A stretch of DNA of 32,000 nucleotides from Psychrobacter cryohalolentis K5 (GCF_000013905.1 NC_007969.1:240001-272000); one strand, 5' to 3'. Positions 9,894 through 30,059 are shown, counted from the first letter of the stretch. The notes: generated from the sequence alone by a model not told the origin. Numbers and translations: made by a program.

Positions 9894-9932
9894 GATATAG
9901 GTTAAGCTGTTTTAAATCATTGTTTTAAACAT

Positions 9933-9963
9933 AAAAAAAGGTGGGCTTCGGCTCACCTTTTTT
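9933..9963. terminator. bidirectional rho-independent terminator (purL on +; probably also the convergent islet operon on -)
   Basis: 8-bp stem AGGTGGGC / GCTCACCT (one G-U pair) closed by a UUCG tetraloop (9947-9950). A7 run before and T6 run after. Confidence 0.85.
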
Positions 9964-9992
9964 GTATTTGGGGTTTGGGTTTTTAAGAAGTA

Positions 9993-10150
9993 GGGGAGCT
10001 AATCCCGCCTTACGCTTGTATCTGCCAGTCTGGGCGAGGCGGTGACACAAGTTGAGATGTTGCTGTTGCCTCGACACCACCTCAATCTCTAGCCACCGCA
10101 ACTCGCCCAAACCAGCAGGATACCGCTACAGTCGGGGCTAAACCGCGCCT
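9993..10150. other. GC-rich structured non-coding element (long imperfect hairpin flanked by imperfect direct repeats)
   Basis: Outer stem TGGGCGAGGCGGTG (10031-10044) pairs with CACCGCAACTCGCCCA (10094-10109) as 8 bp + 2-nt bulge + 6 bp. Inner stem is 10051-10062 / 10075-10086 (9 WC + 1 GU of 12). Flanking repeats are GGGGAGCTAATCCCGCCT (9993-10010) and GGGGCTAAACCGCGCCT (10134-10150). Confidence 0.35.
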
Positions 10151-10172
10151 ACCATTTAACTCAAATGCACTA

Positions 10173-12155
10173 TTAGAAATTCATAAGTTTTCTAGTTCTC
10201 CACCTATTTCCATTTACCAACGATTCAAAGTCACCGTTCTCAAGAGCTAAGTTATCTACATGGTCAGTTACAATTATTTGAGGTGAAAATCCAAACTCTT
10301 CATTCAGAGAAATACAATAGCTATTTAGTTGATTGAAGATATTTGTAACAGATTTCATATCTTCGTCAAGCTTTTTATCTTCTAGTCCTTCAACCCTTTT
10401 AATATCTTCTGTTGAGAAGTTCTCCTTCGTGTCACGGCTAAAATTTGGGAAATAAACTTGAGTTGGTTGGTCTAAGAATAATATAGAAGGGATTAAGCAG
10501 TCTTCGCCTAAAGAGACAAAATATTTATGTAATGAAAGAAATAATGTTAAATGAGTATATAACCAATTAGCACCACTACCCATTGACCTCAAGTATATTT
10601 TTTTATTCTTATCAGTATCATCATGGTACAAGTCAAAACTATTCAAAGAGAATTTCAAATTTATTGGATCATAAGTTTTTTCGAAGTCAAACTCATTGCC
10701 GATATCATACATATATTCATTTATGGTTTTCTCCGCTTCTTCTATAAAGTTAATAATATTATATTTTTTAAGCTCGCCTGTTATAGCTTGCAAGTCTTTC
10801 CTAAGCTCTATAAGTTGCGAATCAATTTTGGTATCACTAGAAGGGTTAATTAAGTCAATAATACTAAATAGCTTGTATTTCTGATTATATATTGCTTCGG
10901 AAAAATCTTTTCTTTCTCTAATCACTTCATTAATACTTTCAAGTTCCTTCTTTTCTGCTTGTAAGCTTTTAACCTGTTTAGTAAGTTTTTCAGCGTGTCT
11001 TTCAGTATCTGCTAATAGTGTCTGAAGAGGAGCGCGCATTTTTTCTGTTAGTCTAAGTGTTTGGTTAAGTTTTTCAATCGCTGTTTTAAGCTGTATAGCC
11101 GATTTAGGTAACTCGCTATGCTTAGTCTCACATAAAGGACAGGTGGCATCAAAAACTTTAACCGCTTCTTGATCAACAAGTTTTTCTGAGGTTAGTAATT
11201 TATCCTCTTGATTTAATGAGTTTTTAATTGAAGTTATTTTATTCTTTGTATGGTTTAGTTCAACAATTTTTTCGGCATGAGATTCTGAAATAGCTACATA
11301 ACGCTGATGGAATATATCTGATGAAGAGTCAAAGTTATCAGGATGCAATATGACATGAAGTCTATTTTTACTTTCTACAGGGTTAGATATAATACTTTTC
11401 AATTTAATAGGTTCTTTAGGAAACCTCATCAGTGCATACATGTTTTTCAGTTCGGGCTCTAGCTCTAGCTCTTGCTTTTCCTTGTAATAATTAAGCACTT
11501 CTTTCTCTTTTTTTAGTTTCTTTATTTCTATCTCAATAGCTTCTTTATTTTTCATCTGTAGAAAATAGTCTTGGTTTACAAATCCTAAAAAAAACTTAGT
11601 ATGTTTAATAACTTGTTCACGCTTTTCTTTTTGATCAAACCGATAGAATAAAGCGTGCTTATTTGCTATTAAATTTTGATGTTGAAGTAAGAACGACATA
11701 TAACTACGTATTGTTGGGCGACTCTCTTTTTGGCCTTTATAAAATGTATCTATTGTAGATTCGTCAATGCTATCTATATCTAAAAGCTCATTTCTCATAT
11801 ACTCCTTGAATTTACTGATAGCAAACCTATCTTCGAAAAATTCTATATTGATTATACTTTTTCTATGTTTCTCTATAGTTCTAGTATAAACCCTATTACT
11901 TTTAGGTTTTCTACCGAAAACATATATTTGATTCGAGATTGCCATACAAACATAGTAAATTTGAGCGTTGTCAGTAATTACACCTTCAGGAATAGTGTCT
12001 TCCGAGCTTCCTAAGCAATAGTCGAATATTTCGATTAACGCACTTTTACCTGTTGAAGATGCTCCTGTGACAATATTTAGTCCAGCTTTAAAATAAACTG
12101 GATGTTTTTTATCACTATCATCTATTATACCTATTTCATAAATCATTGATCTCAT
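10173..12155 (-). CDS. lmuB: Lamassu LmuB-like SMC/Rad50-type ABC ATPase (DUF3732-like) with central zinc hook
   Basis: Walker A GASSTGKS (res 31-38, nt 12042-12065) followed by IFDYCLGS. K/E/L-rich coiled-coil-like region at about res 190-480 with C339-P-L-C342 (nt 11130-11141) at the protein midpoint. C-terminal SMGSGANW (signature-like), ILFLDQP (Walker B, nt 10464-10487) and IIVTDH (H-loop). The ATG overlaps the upstream stop as ATGA, and a GAGGGTG SD sits 7 nt upstream. Confidence 0.85.
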   Translation of the reverse strand: MRSMIYEIGIIDDSDKKHPVYFKAGLNIVTGASSTGKSALIEIFDYCLGSSEDTIPEGVITDNAQIYYVCMAISNQIYVFGRKPKSNRVYTRTIEKHRKSIINIEFFEDRFAISKFKEYMRNELLDIDSIDESTIDTFYKGQKESRPTIRSYMSFLLQHQNLIANKHALFYRFDQKEKREQVIKHTKFFLGFVNQDYFLQMKNKEAIEIEIKKLKKEKEVLNYYKEKQELELEPELKNMYALMRFPKEPIKLKSIISNPVESKNRLHVILHPDNFDSSSDIFHQRYVAISESHAEKIVELNHTKNKITSIKNSLNQEDKLLTSEKLVDQEAVKVFDATCPLCETKHSELPKSAIQLKTAIEKLNQTLRLTEKMRAPLQTLLADTERHAEKLTKQVKSLQAEKKELESINEVIRERKDFSEAIYNQKYKLFSIIDLINPSSDTKIDSQLIELRKDLQAITGELKKYNIINFIEEAEKTINEYMYDIGNEFDFEKTYDPINLKFSLNSFDLYHDDTDKNKKIYLRSMGSGANWLYTHLTLFLSLHKYFVSLGEDCLIPSILFLDQPTQVYFPNFSRDTKENFSTEDIKRVEGLEDKKLDEDMKSVTNIFNQLNSYCISLNEEFGFSPQIIVTDHVDNLALENGDFESLVNGNRWRTRKLMNF

Positions 12156-12607
12156 GGGTTCACCCTCAATCCTTTATAAATTTCAGTAATGGATAAACCA
12201 CTAAATAATTTTCCTAAATTTGTAGCCTGCTTATGTATTTGTTTTTTATCGTAGTTTTCGTTAGCGATAATTCTTAAAGAAGATTCGTCAACAGTCATCC
12301 AATCATTAACTATGCAATAACTTAAGCTTTGTGCAGATAAACGTTTTAAAGCGTCAAATCGCTCTTGTAAATCATAAAATTCTTTGGGATTATCGAACTT
12401 GGTAAAAAAGGTTGAACGACTTTTGCCAGATAATCTCACCGTATCTAACTTTTTAGACAGTTCAGGATGACTACATATCGGTATAATAAGTGGAAGTAGT
12501 AATATGTTTTGCTCTACTTCTTCCAATGAGTTGTAGAATGATACAATGTGACTTCCATACTTGAAGGGGTTGTAGTAGTAGGTGTGAACGGCGTCAATCA
12601 TATCCAC
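12152..12607 (-). CDS. lmuC: Lamassu LmuC-like / ABC-three-component middle subunit (small adaptor); the call rests on position and size
   Basis: 151 aa, sandwiched without spacer between the nuclease and ATPase genes. GTG start at 12607 with a GGGAGA SD 8 nt upstream (alternative ATG at 12601). The stop overlaps the lmuB start. I recognise no catalytic motif. Confidence 0.6.
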   Translation of the reverse strand: MDMIDAVHTYYYNPFKYGSHIVSFYNSLEEVEQNILLLPLIIPICSHPELSKKLDTVRLSGKSRSTFFTKFDNPKEFYDLQERFDALKRLSAQSLSYCIVNDWMTVDESSLRIIANENYDKKQIHKQATNLGKLFSGLSITEIYKGLRVNP

Positions 12608-13744
12608 TTAGTCTATCTCCCATTTTAACTCATCATTTTCATCATCCATAGAGTTATGAATTAAGCCGTTTTTATATGGTTTTGGAGTCATTTCACACTC
12701 TTGAACTTGTTCTGCTGGCTCGTCAATGAACTCATTATATAGAATTTTTGCACAATCTATCCTTGGGTGATTTGGATATAAAAGCGAAGCATTTTGATAT
12801 TTCCTTTTAAATTTCCTTATCAAATCACTCTTATATGTTTTAGTTATTTCTCTATATTTAGGTGATCGTACTGACTCATCCAATAAGGTATTCGTAAATT
12901 CAGCGTAGTTTCCTACAGCTTCAGGAATTTCGTCATAATGCTCTATATCTTTTATCTTTTGAACGAAAAGTGATTCATTATGCTTTAATAAGTCAACGTC
13001 TGTTGCTAGTGCTCCAGTAAAGGGAGGAAAAGAAAACTTTCCTCTACTATATTTACTCGTTAAGTCTTCAAGCCTATCTTTAAAATCATGCTGATTTATG
13101 AACCAGCTATCTTTATCCATTTTTTCGTAAACCCAACCAACAATCCCTTCGAAGTATTGATCTATATTATCATCAGGAATCCCCACTAGTTTGTTAATTA
13201 GTTTCATCTTCAAACTATCTATATCATCTGCGCTGTCATTAATTAGCATCTTACCTAATATATCTTTGATTCTTGCACTATTAGAATCACTAAAGATAAT
13301 TTGCTGAAATTTCAAAACACCTTTAGCGTCTTTCTTTATTTTTTCGGCACCAGTTCTTTTATCATAAATACTTCTTATGATAGCTAGTTTTTCATCAGGA
13401 GTTTTGGAGTTCCAACCATTGAGTTGGCTTGTTTTTGATGTAGGCTGAGTTGTATGAAGAATTAAAAAAGCATACTGTGTATGATCAAAATCATCTTTAA
13501 GCCAATTATTCAGTGTATTCCAAAAATTAGCGTGACCGTCAGTAAGAAAGTCCGTTTGATCGTAATGTTTACTTTCTATTTGTTCATTATTTTCTAATTC
13601 ATTGCCACGTATACTTATATCACCATCACTTTCAAACCAAATTGACTGACCTTCATTCAACTCAAAACACTTTTTAATACCAAGTAAAATCTGATAGTGA
13701 AACCCTCGTAAAGTAGGTAGTACACTGTTTTTAGTTGAATTCAT
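12608..13744 (-). CDS. lmuA: Lamassu LmuA-like effector: N-terminal PD-(D/E)xK nuclease (Cap4/DUF4297-like) plus an unassigned ~250-aa C-terminal domain
   Basis: GFHYQ (res 14-18, nt 13691-13705), then WFE38SD40GD42 ... QIE57SK59 (nt 13568-13633), which is the D...(D/E)xK arrangement. First gene of the operon. 378 aa. Confidence 0.75.
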   Translation of the reverse strand: MNSTKNSVLPTLRGFHYQILLGIKKCFELNEGQSIWFESDGDISIRGNELENNEQIESKHYDQTDFLTDGHANFWNTLNNWLKDDFDHTQYAFLILHTTQPTSKTSQLNGWNSKTPDEKLAIIRSIYDKRTGAEKIKKDAKGVLKFQQIIFSDSNSARIKDILGKMLINDSADDIDSLKMKLINKLVGIPDDNIDQYFEGIVGWVYEKMDKDSWFINQHDFKDRLEDLTSKYSRGKFSFPPFTGALATDVDLLKHNESLFVQKIKDIEHYDEIPEAVGNYAEFTNTLLDESVRSPKYREITKTYKSDLIRKFKRKYQNASLLYPNHPRIDCAKILYNEFIDEPAEQVQECEMTPKPYKNGLIHNSMDDENDELKWEID

Positions 13745-14106
13745 TATGATACCGCGTTTAAATTTAAATCATAAGTTTTAGATGAAATTAAGCTTAGCAC
13801 TTAGATGTCATACTTTACAACTAATGTTTAGACTAACTTATAGTAGATGAATTTACTCAGTACATAAAATAGATAGAGCTTGCGACTTATAGAAATACTA
13901 AGGTGATAACTTGAATCAATAATGTACTGGGTCTCGTCCCTCGACACAGACCTACAATTTTTTATCGTCTACGTTTGGAATTAATATCTATAGATCTGTC
14001 CGCTCATAATCAAGATTATCTCAAATTATGCATAACTGCTATATAAATTAAATATCTGCTAATAGCATCGTCAACCATAATTTAAAAATGAGCGGAGGTA
14101 TTAAAA

Positions 14107-14301
14107 CTATTCACTCTTCAAAACCTCCTTAGCCTCAGCAATCAACTCATGAATCTTCGCGCTTTCTTTTAGTACACAAGCCTCATACGCAGAGAGCGGC
14201 TCGGCTTCCTGCTCTTTTTCTTGCTCCTGTTTGGCTTTTTCTTCTAGATACTTCTGTAGCTCGTCTTGCTCATTTTGCTCGTTGTATTGAGAGTTGCTCA
14301 T
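14107..14301 (-). CDS. small acidic hypothetical protein (64 aa, predicted helical)
   Basis: ATG preceded by a strong AGGAGA SD 8 nt upstream. Lies 29 nt downstream of the amiD stop on the same strand. Host-like base composition. E/K/Q-rich. Confidence 0.55.
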   Translation of the reverse strand: MSNSQYNEQNEQDELQKYLEEKAKQEQEKEQEAEPLSAYEACVLKESAKIHELIAEAKEVLKSE

Positions 14302-14330
14302 GGCTTATGTCTCCTAATATTTTTTATCGA

Positions 14331-24910: not shown

Positions 24911-25960
24911 ATGGTGATGTCTTATAAAAAATCTCAAGTGATAGACGCACGATCTGATAAACAATCCGTTTCACCGTCATGGCTATCAGCAGAATTGGCA
25001 ATCACCATAGAAGCGGATGCCGCGTTAAGTGAATTATTAGCCCCTGTGCATCGTTGGCTAAATGTCTTATCTGTGCGCAATCACTCACCGCATACATTGA
25101 CGGCTTATTTTGCTGGCTTAAACCAGTTGGCGTTATTCCTGCGAGGTAAACGCCTGACATGGACACGTTGTGATAAGCGCCAATTAGCCCAGCATATCAG
25201 CCAACGCCTTGATGAAGACAAACTATCCCTCGCCAGCGTTCAGCAAGAGTTATCAGCTATTCGTCATTTTTATGGCTGGCTGATAGAAGAGGATTTGGCA
25301 CGTATTAATCCAACCACAGGCTATCAGCTTAAGCGTAGTCCTAGACCATTACCCTCTATCGCTGATGTGGATTTATTGACGCAATTGCTCGACCAAGAAA
25401 TACCTGATACACCTGAACAAGCGCGATTATGGCTACGTGATAAGGCGATGTTTGAATTGCTTTATAGCAGTGGTCTACGTGTCGGTGAGCTCGTCGCGTT
25501 AGATATAGTAGATGTCGACTTAGCTGATCTGCGCGTACGCGTGACCGGCAAAGGTAATAAGACACGCCTAGTACCTTTAGGAATAAAAGCGGCTGACGCC
25601 ATTCGTCGTTATTTACCGCACCGTAATCTGTGGGTAGAGCAGATGGACCAAGCATTATTTATTAGTGAAAAACTGGGTACGCGTTTATCAACACGGGCTG
25701 TGCAGCAGCGTCTTAAAGTTGCTGCTACTCGTGCTGGTATTGCTCAAAACATGTATCCGCATCTATTGCGCCATTGCTTTGCATCACATATGTTGTCAGG
25801 AAGTGGCGACTTGCGCGCTGTCCAAGAGATGCTTGGGCATAGCGATATCAGTACCACGCAAATTTATACCCATGTCGATTTTGCTAAATTGACCCAAGTC
25901 TATGACCGTGCCCATCCTCGAGCCACTCACGTATCCAAAGACAGCGATTCAACCCTTTAA
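24911..25960 (+). CDS. xerC: tyrosine recombinase XerC
   Basis: LLYSSGLRVGEL (catalytic Arg), HLLRHCFASH (HxxR) and LGHSDISTTQIYTHV (His/Tyr nucleophile). Conserved position after dapF. About 45-aa N-terminal extension, so the true start is uncertain. Confidence 0.9.
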   Translation: MVMSYKKSQVIDARSDKQSVSPSWLSAELAITIEADAALSELLAPVHRWLNVLSVRNHSPHTLTAYFAGLNQLALFLRGKRLTWTRCDKRQLAQHISQRLDEDKLSLASVQQELSAIRHFYGWLIEEDLARINPTTGYQLKRSPRPLPSIADVDLLTQLLDQEIPDTPEQARLWLRDKAMFELLYSSGLRVGELVALDIVDVDLADLRVRVTGKGNKTRLVPLGIKAADAIRRYLPHRNLWVEQMDQALFISEKLGTRLSTRAVQQRLKVAATRAGIAQNMYPHLLRHCFASHMLSGSGDLRAVQEMLGHSDISTTQIYTHVDFAKLTQVYDRAHPRATHVSKDSDSTL

Positions 25961-27263: not shown

Positions 27264-28991
27264 ATGAGTATGTCGTTCGGATTGGCGACCACGCTAAGCA
27301 CCTCACAAAAACTGACCCCGCAAATGCAGCAAGCTATTAAATTGCTGCAGCTCTCTAGTCTTGAGCTGGCGCAAGAGGTTCAAGCGAAGCTGGACAGTAA
27401 TCCATTACTAGAACGCATCGAAAACGATGAAGATGAGTACGAAAGTATGGATAAAGACGCATTAGATGAGTTTGGCGAGCCACTAACGTTAGACAGTTGG
27501 AATCAGAGTACTGCTTCTGATACGTTTTCTATATCTCCTCCATCAAATAATGAAGATGTATTTGACTATGATGACAGTACTAGCGATAGCCTTACTAATG
27601 ATAGTCTAGATAAATTGCAGCAAGACGGTTTTGATACGGATGCCATCGACAGTTATACGCTTGAAGACTTTGAAGGCTCAAACTATGAAAGCTCAAACTA
27701 TGAAAGCTCAAACTATGATAGCCCTAATGCAGATTATGACGGTTTTAACACCGCCAGTACTGGTTCAGGCAGCATATCAGCGCGTCCAGATTCTGAGGAC
27801 TTTGATCGCTATGAGGGCAGTACCAATGCGACGATTCAAGACCATGTGCGTTGGCAGCTGAATTTTAAACGTCTCTCAGAGACAGATACTCTTATCGCTG
27901 AGTATTTGATGGATTCTATGGACGACATGGGTTTTGTACGGCTCGATATCGAGGAGTTGCTACAGAGCTTTGATACCATTGCGAGCTTTTATCAGTGGGA
28001 TCAGCGCGTTGAGCAGGATGAAGTAATGGCAGTACTGCGCATGATTCAATCCTGTGATCCGCTTGGGGTTGGCGCACGAAATCTAAGTGAATGCTTAGCG
28101 ATTCAGCTATCTAAGCTCGACACTGACACGCCTTATCTAAAACAAGCCCAAGCGCTCTTATCTGCCAGTGAGCATCTGGTCAGTAATAATATTAAAGCCT
28201 TAACTGAGCGCACAGGACTTGCGGCTCATGAGATTACCCCTGCGCTTACGCTGTTGCGTACTTTAAATCCTTCACCAGGATTGCTATTTCAAAGCCGCCA
28301 ACCGGATTATACTCAGTCGCCCGACAGCTATGATATCCCTGATGTATTGGTGACGCCTATCCGTCGCCATGATGCTCATCAAAACACCACCATATCTACT
28401 CAAGAAGATGGCTGGCAGGTACGTCTAAACCCTGAAACCTTGCCAAAACTACGAGTCAACCAAGAATATGCCAACCTTGTTAAGCGCGGCGATAATAGCC
28501 CTGATAATCAATATCTGCGTGAAAATCTCACTGATGCGCGCTTATTTATTCGCAGTATCGAAGAGCGTAATCAGAACCTTTTAAAGGTAGCCACTAGTAT
28601 CGTGCGCTACCAGCAATCTTTTTTGCAGTATGGCGCCACTGCTATGCAACCGCTTATTTTAAAGGTGATTGCAGACGAAGTTGATTTACATGAATCAACG
28701 GTCTCGCGCCTGACCACTAGCAAGACCATTTTGACACCGCAAGGACTGTTTTCGCTCAAGCATTTCTTTTCATCACATGTTAGCAGCAGCGATGGCGATA
28801 TCTCATCAACTGCTATCAGTGCGATGATTAAGCAGCTTATCGCTGATGAAGAGCCCAAAAAGCCATTGTCTGATAGTAAGATAAAAGATTATTTGTTGGC
28901 AGAAGGTATCGATATTGCCAGAAGAACAGTCGCCAAATATCGTGAAGCAATGAATATTGGCTCATCTACACAGCGCAAACAAAAATATTAA
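27264..28991 (+). CDS. rpoN: RNA polymerase sigma-54 factor with an expanded acidic region II
   Basis: Region I LTPQMQQAIKLLQLSSLELAQEV. C-terminal HTH ESTVSRLTT and RpoN box ARRTVAKYREAM. 575 aa, with about 140 aa of D/E/S/N-rich linker. Confidence 0.95.
   Translation: MSMSFGLATTLSTSQKLTPQMQQAIKLLQLSSLELAQEVQAKLDSNPLLERIENDEDEYESMDKDALDEFGEPLTLDSWNQSTASDTFSISPPSNNEDVFDYDDSTSDSLTNDSLDKLQQDGFDTDAIDSYTLEDFEGSNYESSNYESSNYDSPNADYDGFNTASTGSGSISARPDSEDFDRYEGSTNATIQDHVRWQLNFKRLSETDTLIAEYLMDSMDDMGFVRLDIEELLQSFDTIASFYQWDQRVEQDEVMAVLRMIQSCDPLGVGARNLSECLAIQLSKLDTDTPYLKQAQALLSASEHLVSNNIKALTERTGLAAHEITPALTLLRTLNPSPGLLFQSRQPDYTQSPDSYDIPDVLVTPIRRHDAHQNTTISTQEDGWQVRLNPETLPKLRVNQEYANLVKRGDNSPDNQYLRENLTDARLFIRSIEERNQNLLKVATSIVRYQQSFLQYGATAMQPLILKVIADEVDLHESTVSRLTTSKTILTPQGLFSLKHFFSSHVSSSDGDISSTAISAMIKQLIADEEPKKPLSDSKIKDYLLAEGIDIARRTVAKYREAMNIGSSTQRKQKY
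27676..27720 (+). repeat. in-frame 15-bp tandem repeat x3 inside rpoN (encodes SNYES-SNYES-SNYDS)
   Basis: gctcaaactatgaaa (27676-27690), an identical copy at 27691-27705, and gctcaaactatgata (27706-27720). Confidence 0.9.
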
Positions 28992-29393
28992 TGGTCTGAA
29001 TTCAATAAGTTATCTAAAGAGGTGATTAATAATCAAAATATTCTATAGGAAATATAAAAAATAAAATTTTCTGATTATATAGAAACATTAAAGAAACAAC
29101 CGATTTTATTACATTTAATTACAATATAAAACCTTGCTACTAGCGGGTTTTCATGACAAATTAGAGTCATACCAACAACAAAATCAAAGTGTCGATTTAG
29201 CAAATTTATGTAGTCAGTCATTAGGGATGAGATAAAAAAGACGATAAAAGGATACGTCGATATTTTATTAAAAGTGCTGCTATTAAAGACGTTGAGGATA
29301 AAGATACAAGATTATTTTGTGGTAAGGCAGGATGATAAGAGCAGCGATGCGACCTCATCTGTTGATTGTAAGTACTAATAAGAGGACAATAAT

Positions 29394-29762
29394 ATGAATG
29401 TTTCTATCAGTGGTCACCATATCAGTATTACCGATGCCATGGACACCGCAGTTCGCGAAAAACTTGAAAAAGTCGAGCGTCACTTTGATCAGATTCAAAG
29501 TATTCAAGTGATTCTATCGCTAGATAATAGCGGTGCTAAAAAGAGCCATAAGGCTGAAGCTATCATGCGAGTCTCGGGTAAAGAGATGTTTGTCCAAGCT
29601 CTTGATGATGATATGTATAAAGCCATAAATGAGATGGCAGACAAACTTGATAGACAAGTACGCAAGTATAAAACAAAAATGGAGAGCAAAAAAACACAGG
29701 GTGCAGGGCGTGATTCTCGCTATGAAGATTTGATGACGGCTGAAGCTGAGCCTGCAGTTTAA
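29394..29762 (+). CDS. hpf: ribosome hibernation promoting factor (sigma-54 modulation protein family, short form)
   Basis: MNVSISGHHISITDAMDTAVREKLEKVERHF ... MYKAINEMADKLDRQVRKYK is typical HPF/YhbH. GAGGA SD upstream. Conserved position downstream of rpoN, here after a 400-bp AT-rich gap. Confidence 0.9.
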   Translation: MNVSISGHHISITDAMDTAVREKLEKVERHFDQIQSIQVILSLDNSGAKKSHKAEAIMRVSGKEMFVQALDDDMYKAINEMADKLDRQVRKYKTKMESKKTQGAGRDSRYEDLMTAEAEPAV

Positions 29763-29914
29763 TGATAGTTTGCTGTGTCATAAAATTTTAATAATTATTA
29801 GCCAATAAATAAATGCACAAATAGCACGGTTATTAAATTGAACAGTATTCCTGAGTAATTTGAATACGTGACATGCTCAAAAATGAGCAATTCAGCAAGC
29901 CTAAGACGCTAAGT

Positions 29915-29954
29915 AAAAAAAGACCTCAAACGAATAACCGTTTAGGTCTTTTTT
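29915..29954. terminator. bidirectional rho-independent terminator between convergent hpf and thiS
   Basis: Hairpin AGACCT-c-AAACG / CGTTT-AGGTCT (29921-29949), flanked by an A6 run and a T6 run. Confidence 0.8.
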
Positions 29955-30059
29955 ATAATAAATTTTAAAAGGAAAGGGTTGTAAACATTAGGTTTTACAG
30001 TGTGATTTTCTAAAATTCTATGTATCAAAAACGACTATCTATTTCAATGGTTAAAAACC

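Follow-up and report, generated by a model that had tools for sequence, protein, structure and literature searches.

A probably intact type II Lamassu operon with a Cap4-type effector in a defence hotspot of Psychrobacter cryohalolentis K5

The 32,000-nucleotide stretch of Psychrobacter cryohalolentis K5 analyzed here (GCF_000013905.1 NC_007969.1:240001-272000; hereafter the window) carries three adjacent minus-strand genes, lmuA, lmuC, and lmuB (Table 1), which we interpret as an intact type II ("short") Lamassu operon with a Cap4-type effector, the order lmuA-lmuC-lmuB, and a defence mechanism assigned by homology. We put the probability of this interpretation at roughly 0.88. The analysis combined PADLOC and Pfam profile searches with family-profile searches against Protein Data Bank (PDB) sequences and, for LmuA, an AlphaFold2 model searched with Foldseek. 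All three proteins matched the PADLOC Lamassu models: LmuA matched PDLC03848 at 1e-42 over residues 4–366, LmuC matched the LmuC model at 8.1e-16, and LmuB matched PDLC03859 at 5.4e-103. Therefore, we designate the three genes a Lamassu operon. The interpretation rests on the homology of the proteins, their intact motifs, the structure of the operon, its status as an island, and its position in a defence hotspot; the complex formation, trigger, and phenotype proposed for this Lamassu are drawn by analogy with solved systems. An earlier note, made from the sequence of the window, had called the genes a horizontally acquired, probably functional defence operon of the Lamassu/DdmABC/ABC-three-component (ABC-3C) type. 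Profile, solved-structure, and fold matches support that call, and the SMC/DUF3732 and nuclease matches and the defence-gene neighbors of homologous triads, whose absence the note had named as counting against it, were all found.

In addition to its PADLOC model, LmuB matched Pfam DUF3732/LmuB_C (1.7e-49) and AAA_23, as well as the solved LmuB proteins of Salmonella (9hqu_A, 1.6e-43, residues 15–653) and Vibrio cholerae (LmuB/DdmC, 9ny5_D and 9uxl_A, about 1e-31, residues 25–638), in line with the SMC/DUF3732 head that had been expected. Alignment with these solved proteins revealed that (i) the Walker A lysine K37 corresponded to K40 of both Salmonella and V. cholerae LmuB, with the segment IFDYCLGS at residues 43–50 behind it; (ii) the single CxxC, CPLC, corresponded to the CPMC of Salmonella LmuB, and the zinc hook is needed for defence in the Salmonella system (10.1101/2025.03.14.643221); (iii) S527 of the signature GSGANW was aligned with the Salmonella head-engagement residue S536; (iv) D562 and Q563 of the Walker B segment ILFLDQP were aligned with the DQ of solved LmuB; and (v) the H-loop VTDH was aligned with the VLDH of Salmonella and V. 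cholerae LmuB. The LmuB of short Lamassu has about 600 residues rather than about 800 and zero to two CxxC zinc hooks at the coiled-coil apex (PMC12663957, Haudiquet et al.), and its Walker B takes the form hhhhDQ within a class consensus of hhhhD[Q/S/T/E] (PMC12663957). With 660 residues, an hhhhDQ Walker B, and one CxxC, the LmuB described here thus fits the short class. The DNA-end pocket of V. cholerae LmuB comprises K55, R152, K174, and H180 (PMC12663957); the equivalent residues here are E52, R150, R172, and K178, three of the four being basic.

LmuB could instead be a housekeeping DNA-repair ATPase of the SMC/Rad50/RecN type whose neighbors are unrelated to it, a view that draws on its matches to the NCBIfam recN, SMC, and archaeal SMC-related (ASRP) models and on the proposed origin of Lamassu from SbcCD (PMC12663957). 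These matches are weak and partial (E 1e-5 to 8e-3) and all lie far under the curated cut-offs, whereas the Lamassu-specific models matched at 1e-49 to 1e-103; moreover, no other Psychrobacter species examined has the three genes, which are compositionally foreign and conserved as one unit (described below). The operon shares with Rad50-Mre11/SbcCD the coiled-coil-split ABC head, the CxxC zinc hook, and the recognition of DNA ends, but it has no Mre11/SbcD phosphoesterase, its coiled coil is much shorter, and it is accessory rather than core. A housekeeping role is therefore effectively refuted already. Wadjet was also considered; there was no match to it in PADLOC, and no kleisin/KITE/JetD or Mre11/SbcD partner genes were found nearby.

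LmuC, the middle component, matched Pfam MC3 (PF20131) at 1.4e-30. A search of PDB sequences with the single LmuC sequence found nothing, and a family profile was needed; the profile of 11 LmuC sequences matched the solved Salmonella LmuC (9hqu_D) at 4.2e-6. The middle subunit, which had been described as having no assignable motif, is thus an MC3-family protein.

For LmuA, the search of PDB sequences with a single sequence likewise found nothing and a family profile was needed. The profile of 42 LmuA sequences matched V. cholerae LmuA (9nxx_A) at 8e-10, with profile residues 8–364 aligned to chain residues 6–369, and Salmonella LmuA (9hqu_C) at 4e-7 over its full length. The AlphaFold2 model of LmuA had a predicted local distance difference test score (pLDDT) of 91.5, and its best Foldseek matches in the PDB were the LmuA chains of both solved systems (9nxx and 9hr5, about 4–6e-14, full-length alignments), followed by the nucleases of DUF4297-HerA, Hachiman HamA, Cap4, and Avs3; E-values for the Cap4, HerA-DUF4297, and Hachiman folds ranged from 1e-4 to 1e-2. 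The global template-modeling (TM) scores were modest (0.45–0.52), which probably reflects flexibility at the hinge joining the two domains; when a chain of one domain only was superposed on the model, the TM-score was 0.76 and the root mean square deviation 2.1 Å.

The LmuA motifs are GFHYQ (residues 14–18), E38-S-D40-G-D42, and E57-S-K59; like the LmuB motifs, all of those listed from the sequence at the outset were recovered at their residues. E38, D42, E57, and K59 are invariant in the 42 LmuA homologues. In the alignments, E38 and D42 have counterparts of the same numbers in V. cholerae LmuA, and the counterpart of K59 in Salmonella LmuA is K68, the catalytic lysine that Li et al. mutated (10.1101/2025.03.14.643221). 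These invariant residues and the Foldseek matches support a PD-(D/E)xK nuclease of the Cap4/DUF4297 type, as the earlier note had proposed. Two of its other statements on LmuA did not hold: the nuclease gene is not unusually compact (378 residues, compared with 388 and 403 in the solved LmuAs), and the C-terminal domain, said to have no assignable motif, belongs to a protein that is homologous to solved LmuA over its full length and some of whose relatives match CTD7 weakly (described below). Among 1.84 billion cluster representatives, 373 LmuA relatives were found at E ≤ 1e-3 and 108 at E ≤ 1e-30; they fall into about 370 clusters at 50% identity and, among the 150 matches listed, are mostly of 360–400 residues. 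The clade is established but poorly covered by Pfam. Its nuclease motif is ExK, whereas that of Salmonella LmuA is QxK; compared with the solved QxK enzymes, the clade may have another trigger or cleave differently.

Several observations weigh against the interpretation as a complete Lamassu operon of this type. LmuA itself has no match in Pfam (including Cap4_nuclease and CTD7) or NCBIfam; of its 42 relatives, 3 match Cap4_nuclease and 2 match CTD7 (PF20283, 3e-6), in both cases weakly; and it is only 14–17% identical to the solved LmuAs. The LmuC model, which was built on a shallow alignment of 9 sequences, had a pLDDT of 47 and was unfit for a fold search. In the DNA-end pocket, K55 of V. 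cholerae LmuB is replaced by the acidic E52, and this lysine is not conserved in Salmonella LmuB either. A sigma-70 consensus scan found no minus-strand match upstream of lmuA, and fewer sites than in shuffled controls. Finally, in the closest relative, an island at the same chromosomal site of Psychrobacter sp. TWP2-1-2, lmuB is split by a frameshift near codon 365 into ORFs of 365 and 306 residues, which indicates that the system can decay. The last three points also speak for the alternative that the operon is Lamassu by descent but no longer functional, a silent or decaying passenger of the hotspot. We consider such loss of function improbable. None of the three open reading frames (ORFs) is truncated, all of the catalytic and structural motifs tested are intact, and the signals for translational coupling are kept. 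Identical proteins occur in several independent assemblies, the LmuB protein being identical on 7 contigs that include independent sequencing runs, and two additional metagenome contigs encode LmuA, LmuB, and LmuC at 99–100% amino acid identity. As for the promoter, the consensus scan is crude, and promoters that deviate from the consensus are frequent in AT-rich leaders.

The operon structure was read directly from the DNA. The three minus-strand ORFs follow one another with no intergenic space, as first described, and each junction has a Shine-Dalgarno motif: the TAA of lmuA abuts the GTG start of lmuC, with GGGAGA 8 nucleotides upstream, and the lmuC stop and lmuB start overlap as ATGA, with GAGGGTG 5 nucleotides upstream. 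An in-frame ATG two codons past the GTG would give a 149-residue LmuC; public gene calls give 151 residues in 2 assemblies and 149 in 2 others. Uninterrupted ORFs of 378, 151, and 660 codons at 32% GC are far beyond chance. All 7 homologous loci examined have the gene order lmuA-lmuC-lmuB, and their junctions are mostly 4-nucleotide overlaps, with one 8-nucleotide overlap, two exact abutments, and one 1-nucleotide gap. Translational coupling is real; the fixed stoichiometry that had been read from it cannot be taken to mean equal amounts of the subunits, since solved Lamassu complexes have the composition A1:B2:C1 (PMC12663957; 10.1101/2025.03.14.643221).

The residue-level matches of LmuB and LmuA support the transfer of a mechanism from the solved systems. 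Two LmuB protomers would dimerize via their zinc hooks, with folding of the short coiled coils, and the LmuB dimer together with one LmuC would clamp the C-terminal domain of one LmuA, so that the A1B2C1 complex keeps the nuclease monomeric and inactive. The LmuB head and LmuC would bind exposed double-stranded DNA ends arising from phage or plasmid replication, and activation would need ATP to be turned over, slowly, at the deviant (D-Q) Walker B site. The freed LmuA would then tetramerize via its C-terminal domains, the nuclease domains pairing to form an active site of E38, D42, E57, and K59, and indiscriminate DNA cleavage would abort the infection or eliminate the plasmid-bearing cell. 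Both the docking of the LmuA C-terminal domain on LmuB/LmuC and its role in tetramerization are here taken over from solved LmuA and may apply in the same form.

A nuclease that would act on the DNA of its own cell raises the alternative that the triad is mainly a selfish, toxin-like addiction module that stabilizes the island instead of defending against phages. Lamassu is toxic on over-expression and kills the host on activation (PMC12663957; 10.1101/2025.03.14.643221), and toxin-antitoxin pairs (RelE/helix-turn-helix (HTH), Panacea) occupy the same hotspot in other species. The operon, however, has no labile component resembling an antitoxin, and defence against phages and plasmids has been measured for homologous systems; abortive infection can coexist with addiction, and nothing here is specific to addiction. 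We regard a mainly addictive role as very improbable and retain the interpretation as a defence operon.

Among the closest known systems, the LmuACB of Salmonella enterica serovar Tennessee (PDB 9hqu, 9hqx, and 9hr5; Li et al. 2025, 10.1101/2025.03.14.643221) has the same gene order, a Cap4-type LmuA with a C-terminal domain, an MC3-family LmuC, and a 660-residue LmuB with one CxxC, a DQ Walker B, and the signature serine. It provides the best solved match for LmuB, over the full length, and for LmuC. The two systems differ in that (i) their sequences are strongly diverged, LmuA being about 16% identical in the structural alignment; (ii) the nuclease motif here is ExK; and (iii) host and genomic context are different. 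The V. cholerae El Tor DdmABC, or Lamassu Vc-Cap4 (PDB 9ny5, 9nyg, 9nxx, 9ny1, and 9uxh-9uxl; PMC12663957; 10.1101/2025.06.23.660979), has the same three-component architecture and effector class, and its LmuA is the best profile match for LmuA, over the full length, with the E38 and D42 equivalents kept. R152, K174, and H180 of its LmuB correspond to R150, R172, and K178 here, and its K55 to E52; V. cholerae LmuB has no zinc hook (PMC12663957), whereas the LmuB described here has one. DdmABC is located on a pathogenicity-type island, whereas the Lamassu operon here is a solitary cargo between purL and the amidase gene. The island that carries DdmABC is VSP-II. LmuA is 14–16% identical to its V. 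cholerae counterpart in the structural alignment, and this together with the CxxC of LmuB does not fit a close orthology to VC0492-VC0490. Judging from the sequences, the operon would work like DdmABC without being its orthologue.

The ABC-3C systems (Pfam MC1-MC8 and CTD1-CTD12) have in common with the operon the ABC ATPase, the MC3 middle component, and an effector whose C-terminal part is a coupling domain. Since the term ABC-3C is a synonym of type II Lamassu (10.1101/2025.06.23.660979), the two do not really differ. Type I Lamassu (LmuAB, e.g., of Bacillus cellulasensis; PDB 9ux7) shares the SMC-like sensor LmuB and the effector LmuA, and the LmuA model had a weak Foldseek match to 9ux7_C (6e-3), but type I has no LmuC, whereas the operon encodes a clear MC3-type LmuC. 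The PD-(D/E)xK DUF4297/Cap4 fold of the N-terminal domain of LmuA is also present in CBASS Cap4, HerA-DUF4297, and Hachiman HamA. The operon differs from these in having no SAVED, HerA, or HamB partner, and activation would proceed through the LmuB/LmuC sensor rather than through cyclic nucleotides or a helicase.

The variant, which the earlier note took to be uncharacterized, belongs to a class whose architecture, Cap4-CTD / MC3 / DUF3732, was solved by three groups in 2025, with structures and mechanism published (PMC12663957; 10.1101/2025.03.14.643221; 10.1101/2025.06.23.660979). It therefore adds little to the biology of Lamassu, being a diverged yet canonical Cap4/MC3/zinc-hook system that existing PADLOC models recognize. 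It does offer a natural test case, in that the homologue is cold-adapted and AT-rich, its nuclease motif is ExK, and it can be compared with a sister allele in which a frameshift has arisen naturally.

The operon lies in an acquired island. GC content is 0.31–0.33 over 10.5–14 kb and 0.44–0.50 in the flanks, or 31.7% in the island compared with 43.8% in the rest of the window, which bears out the AT-richness first remarked on. The syntenic locus was gathered from 80 other Psychrobacter species by an amidase scan, and in 62 of the 80 it spanned the whole amidase-purL region. Homology to the backbone of other Psychrobacter breaks off at about 14128 and sets in again at about 10148, which bounds an island of 3.98 kb, and neither lmuA nor lmuC nor lmuB is present in the 80 loci. 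On one side the island is flanked by purL and on the other by a conserved 64-residue ORF, the Amidase_2/PG-binding amidase gene, a MOSC protein gene, rsfS, a nadD-like gene, pta, and ackA, with genes for lysA-like, dapF, xerC-like, rpoN, hpf, and a sigma-70-family factor beyond these; the Lamassu genes are thus a solitary cargo among housekeeping genes and not part of a multi-system island. No integrase or transposase gene was found near the island, the sole integrase-family gene in the window being the xerC-like gene at 24911–25960, which adjoins dapF. A search of the island ends for target-site duplications and att-like direct repeats gave only matches of 11–14 nucleotides, consistent with chance in AT-rich DNA. 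A plasmid or phage origin of the island was considered and rejected; the plasmid and phage collections contain next to no members of the LmuA clade, with one distant LmuA match (26–27% identity) in each.

In the 62 other species that span it, the amidase-purL interval (equivalent to about 9894–14330 of the window) ranges from 374 bp (L046) to 9.8 kb, and its content is variable and rich in defence genes. Besides the systems listed in Table 1, the cargo includes RelE/HTH toxin-antitoxin pairs, an IrrE-type M78 peptidase with an HTH domain, and proteins with HD-CE, Mrr, GmrSD, Cap15-receptor, SLATT, DACNG/DACNH, and SMEK domains, as well as large proteins (937–1276 residues) that have no PADLOC match (e.g., L071:14838-18566, L069:14958-18785, and L045:15137-17947). 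This variable defence cargo marks the amidase-purL interval as a defence hotspot of Psychrobacter, one that has no integrase. The horizontal acquisition proposed at the outset is thus upheld by an AT-rich island, whose genes are missing from the loci of 80 other species, at a defence-rich site. Members of the Moraxellaceae are naturally competent. The hotspot, which lies between the conserved 64-residue ORF and a REP-like hairpin beside purL, should be useful for studying the recombinational exchange of defence cargo.

The sister island of Psychrobacter sp. TWP2-1-2 has 85% nucleotide identity to the island here, its LmuA is 90% identical in amino acid sequence, and its frameshifted lmuB is predicted to be a natural loss-of-function allele. 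Together with it, six other loci, which carry more distantly related LmuA-family members (one each from Marinobacter, V. cholerae, Proteus, and Salmonella, the remaining two from further assemblies), make up the seven homologous loci. Five of the seven are nested in type I restriction-modification operons, and one further locus is in an integrase-bearing island; homologous triads thus do stand beside known defence genes, as had been anticipated.

As a separate observation on these loci, LmuA-clade members are located between or after hsdM/hsdS and before hsdR (L086:3184-13604, L087:3191-13610, L088, L090:383-9918, and L091), and three such loci have an extra SMC_N/AAA_21 ATPase gene inside the type I restriction-modification operon.

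Table 1. Positions of the operon, its motifs, the island with its edges, and features of related loci. Plain ranges are positions in the window; L numbers are loci from elsewhere.
Feature	Position	Strand	Description
lmuA	12608–13744	−	378 residues, ATG start; Cap4-type PD-(D/E)xK nuclease (N-terminal) and Lamassu/ABC-3C C-terminal domain (oligomerization/docking)
lmuC	12152–12607	−	151 residues, GTG start; middle component
lmuB	10173–12155	−	660 residues, ATG start; short SMC/Rad50-like ABC ATPase
LmuA catalytic core codons	13568–13633	−	E38, D40, D42 at 13619–13633; E57-S-K59 at 13568–13576
LmuB Walker A GASSTGKS (K37)	12042–12065	−	Residues 31–38
LmuB zinc hook CPLC (C339/C342)	11130–11141	−	Residues 339–342
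LmuB signature GSGANW and Walker B ILFLDQP	10458–10580	−	From alignment with solved LmuB; GSGANW residues 526–531, 10563–10580; ILFLDQP residues 558–564, 10464–10484
LmuB H-loop VTDH (H632)	10260–10271	−	Residues 629–632
Leader upstream of lmuA	13745–14106	−	AT-rich, non-coding; presumed promoter region
Acquired island	10149–14127		About 3.98 kb, 31.7% GC
Long REP-like hairpin	9997–10143	−	About 150 nucleotides, GC-rich; 30 nucleotides past the lmuB stop, terminator next
Terminator-like hairpin	9933–9966	both	Common to purL (+) and the lmu operon (−); read from the sequence
Sister Lamassu island	L085:5836-9448		Psychrobacter sp. TWP2-1-2, JAFCVA010000019.1; same chromosomal site
Hotspot cargo: Gabija GajA and GajB	L058, L028		
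Hotspot cargo: Hachiman HamA and HamB	L064		
Hotspot cargo: PD-Lambda-5	L009		
Hotspot cargo: PDC-S49	L031		
Hotspot cargo: PDC-S33 and Panacea antitoxin	L083, L024		
Hotspot cargo: HEC-05	L037		
Hotspot cargo: Aga-type restriction endonuclease	L054		
Hairpin outside the amidase-purL locus	L103 (near 849-871), L107 (2358-2501), L132 (7099-7242), L098, L102		

The leader upstream of lmuA contains no ORF of at least 50 residues and is partly common to the sister island of TWP2-1-2 (L085). Downstream of lmuB, the 9933–9966 hairpin consists of an A-run, GGTGAGC-CGAA-GCCCACC, and then 7 T; it forms the 3' hairpin in the fold of the region, was missed by the terminator scanner on account of one stem mismatch, and resembles a bidirectional intrinsic terminator.

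The long hairpin (Table 1) resembles a repetitive extragenic palindromic (REP) element and belongs to the backbone rather than to the Lamassu island. Its fold has a z-score of −6.0 relative to shuffled sequence, and its pairing is conserved in 20 sequences, with 97.7% of pair cells paired compared with 31–42% in slid controls; compensatory changes are seen at six pairs, and several G-U pairs exist on the minus strand only. In Rfam the hairpin had only a sub-threshold match (Flavo-1, 37.1 bits against a threshold of 42), and the whole window was empty at gathering thresholds. The hairpin occurs once each in 23 of the 80 loci from other Psychrobacter species (e.g., L005:12539-12696, L028:18153-18311, and L071:18588-18750) and in the TWP2-1-2 locus. 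Wherever its position was inspected, the hairpin is at the edge of the variable cargo that faces purL, for instance 16 nucleotides past gajB in L028. Its 23-nucleotide core was found in 45 metagenome contigs, most of which represent the amidase-purL locus and two of which carry this same Lamassu, and was absent from viral contigs. In at least 10 metagenome contigs the hairpin is located at other chromosomal loci, at least two in number, again beside variable cargo. Among this cargo are Thoeris, represented by ThsA (SIR2-STALD) and two TIR proteins (ThsB), a C5-methylase accompanied by a HEPN protein, and DUF2971. The distance from the hairpin to an IS200-like Y1_Tnp (RAYT-like) transposase gene is 120–700 nucleotides in three contigs. 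These features suggest a low-copy element of the REP/REPIN-like type that marks the boundaries of cargo. Whether the hairpin also acts as a functional landmark, a REPIN-like single-stranded DNA hairpin or an RNA insulator that promotes or tolerates the exchange of defence cassettes, is doubtful; if it did, this would explain the arrival of an island that has no integrase. An integron attC-like site was rejected by eye, as no R''/R' core sites (RYYYAAC/GTTRRRY) were visible and there is a single copy per locus. A 61-residue ORF with a TTG start at 9925–10110 on the minus strand was also discarded as spurious; it lies inside the hairpin and terminator and has no family match.

At the other edge of the hotspot, the 64-residue, E/K-rich ORF (14107–14301, minus strand) is present beside the amidase gene in most Psychrobacter species at 58–95% amino acid identity, and its homology ends at about 14128, so that its last 7 or so codons are located in island-specific DNA. 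A second AT-rich stretch lies at 28500–30000 (GC 0.34–0.37), after rpoN (27264–28991) and around an hpf-like gene (29394–29762), and is probably intergenic or regulatory DNA rather than an island.

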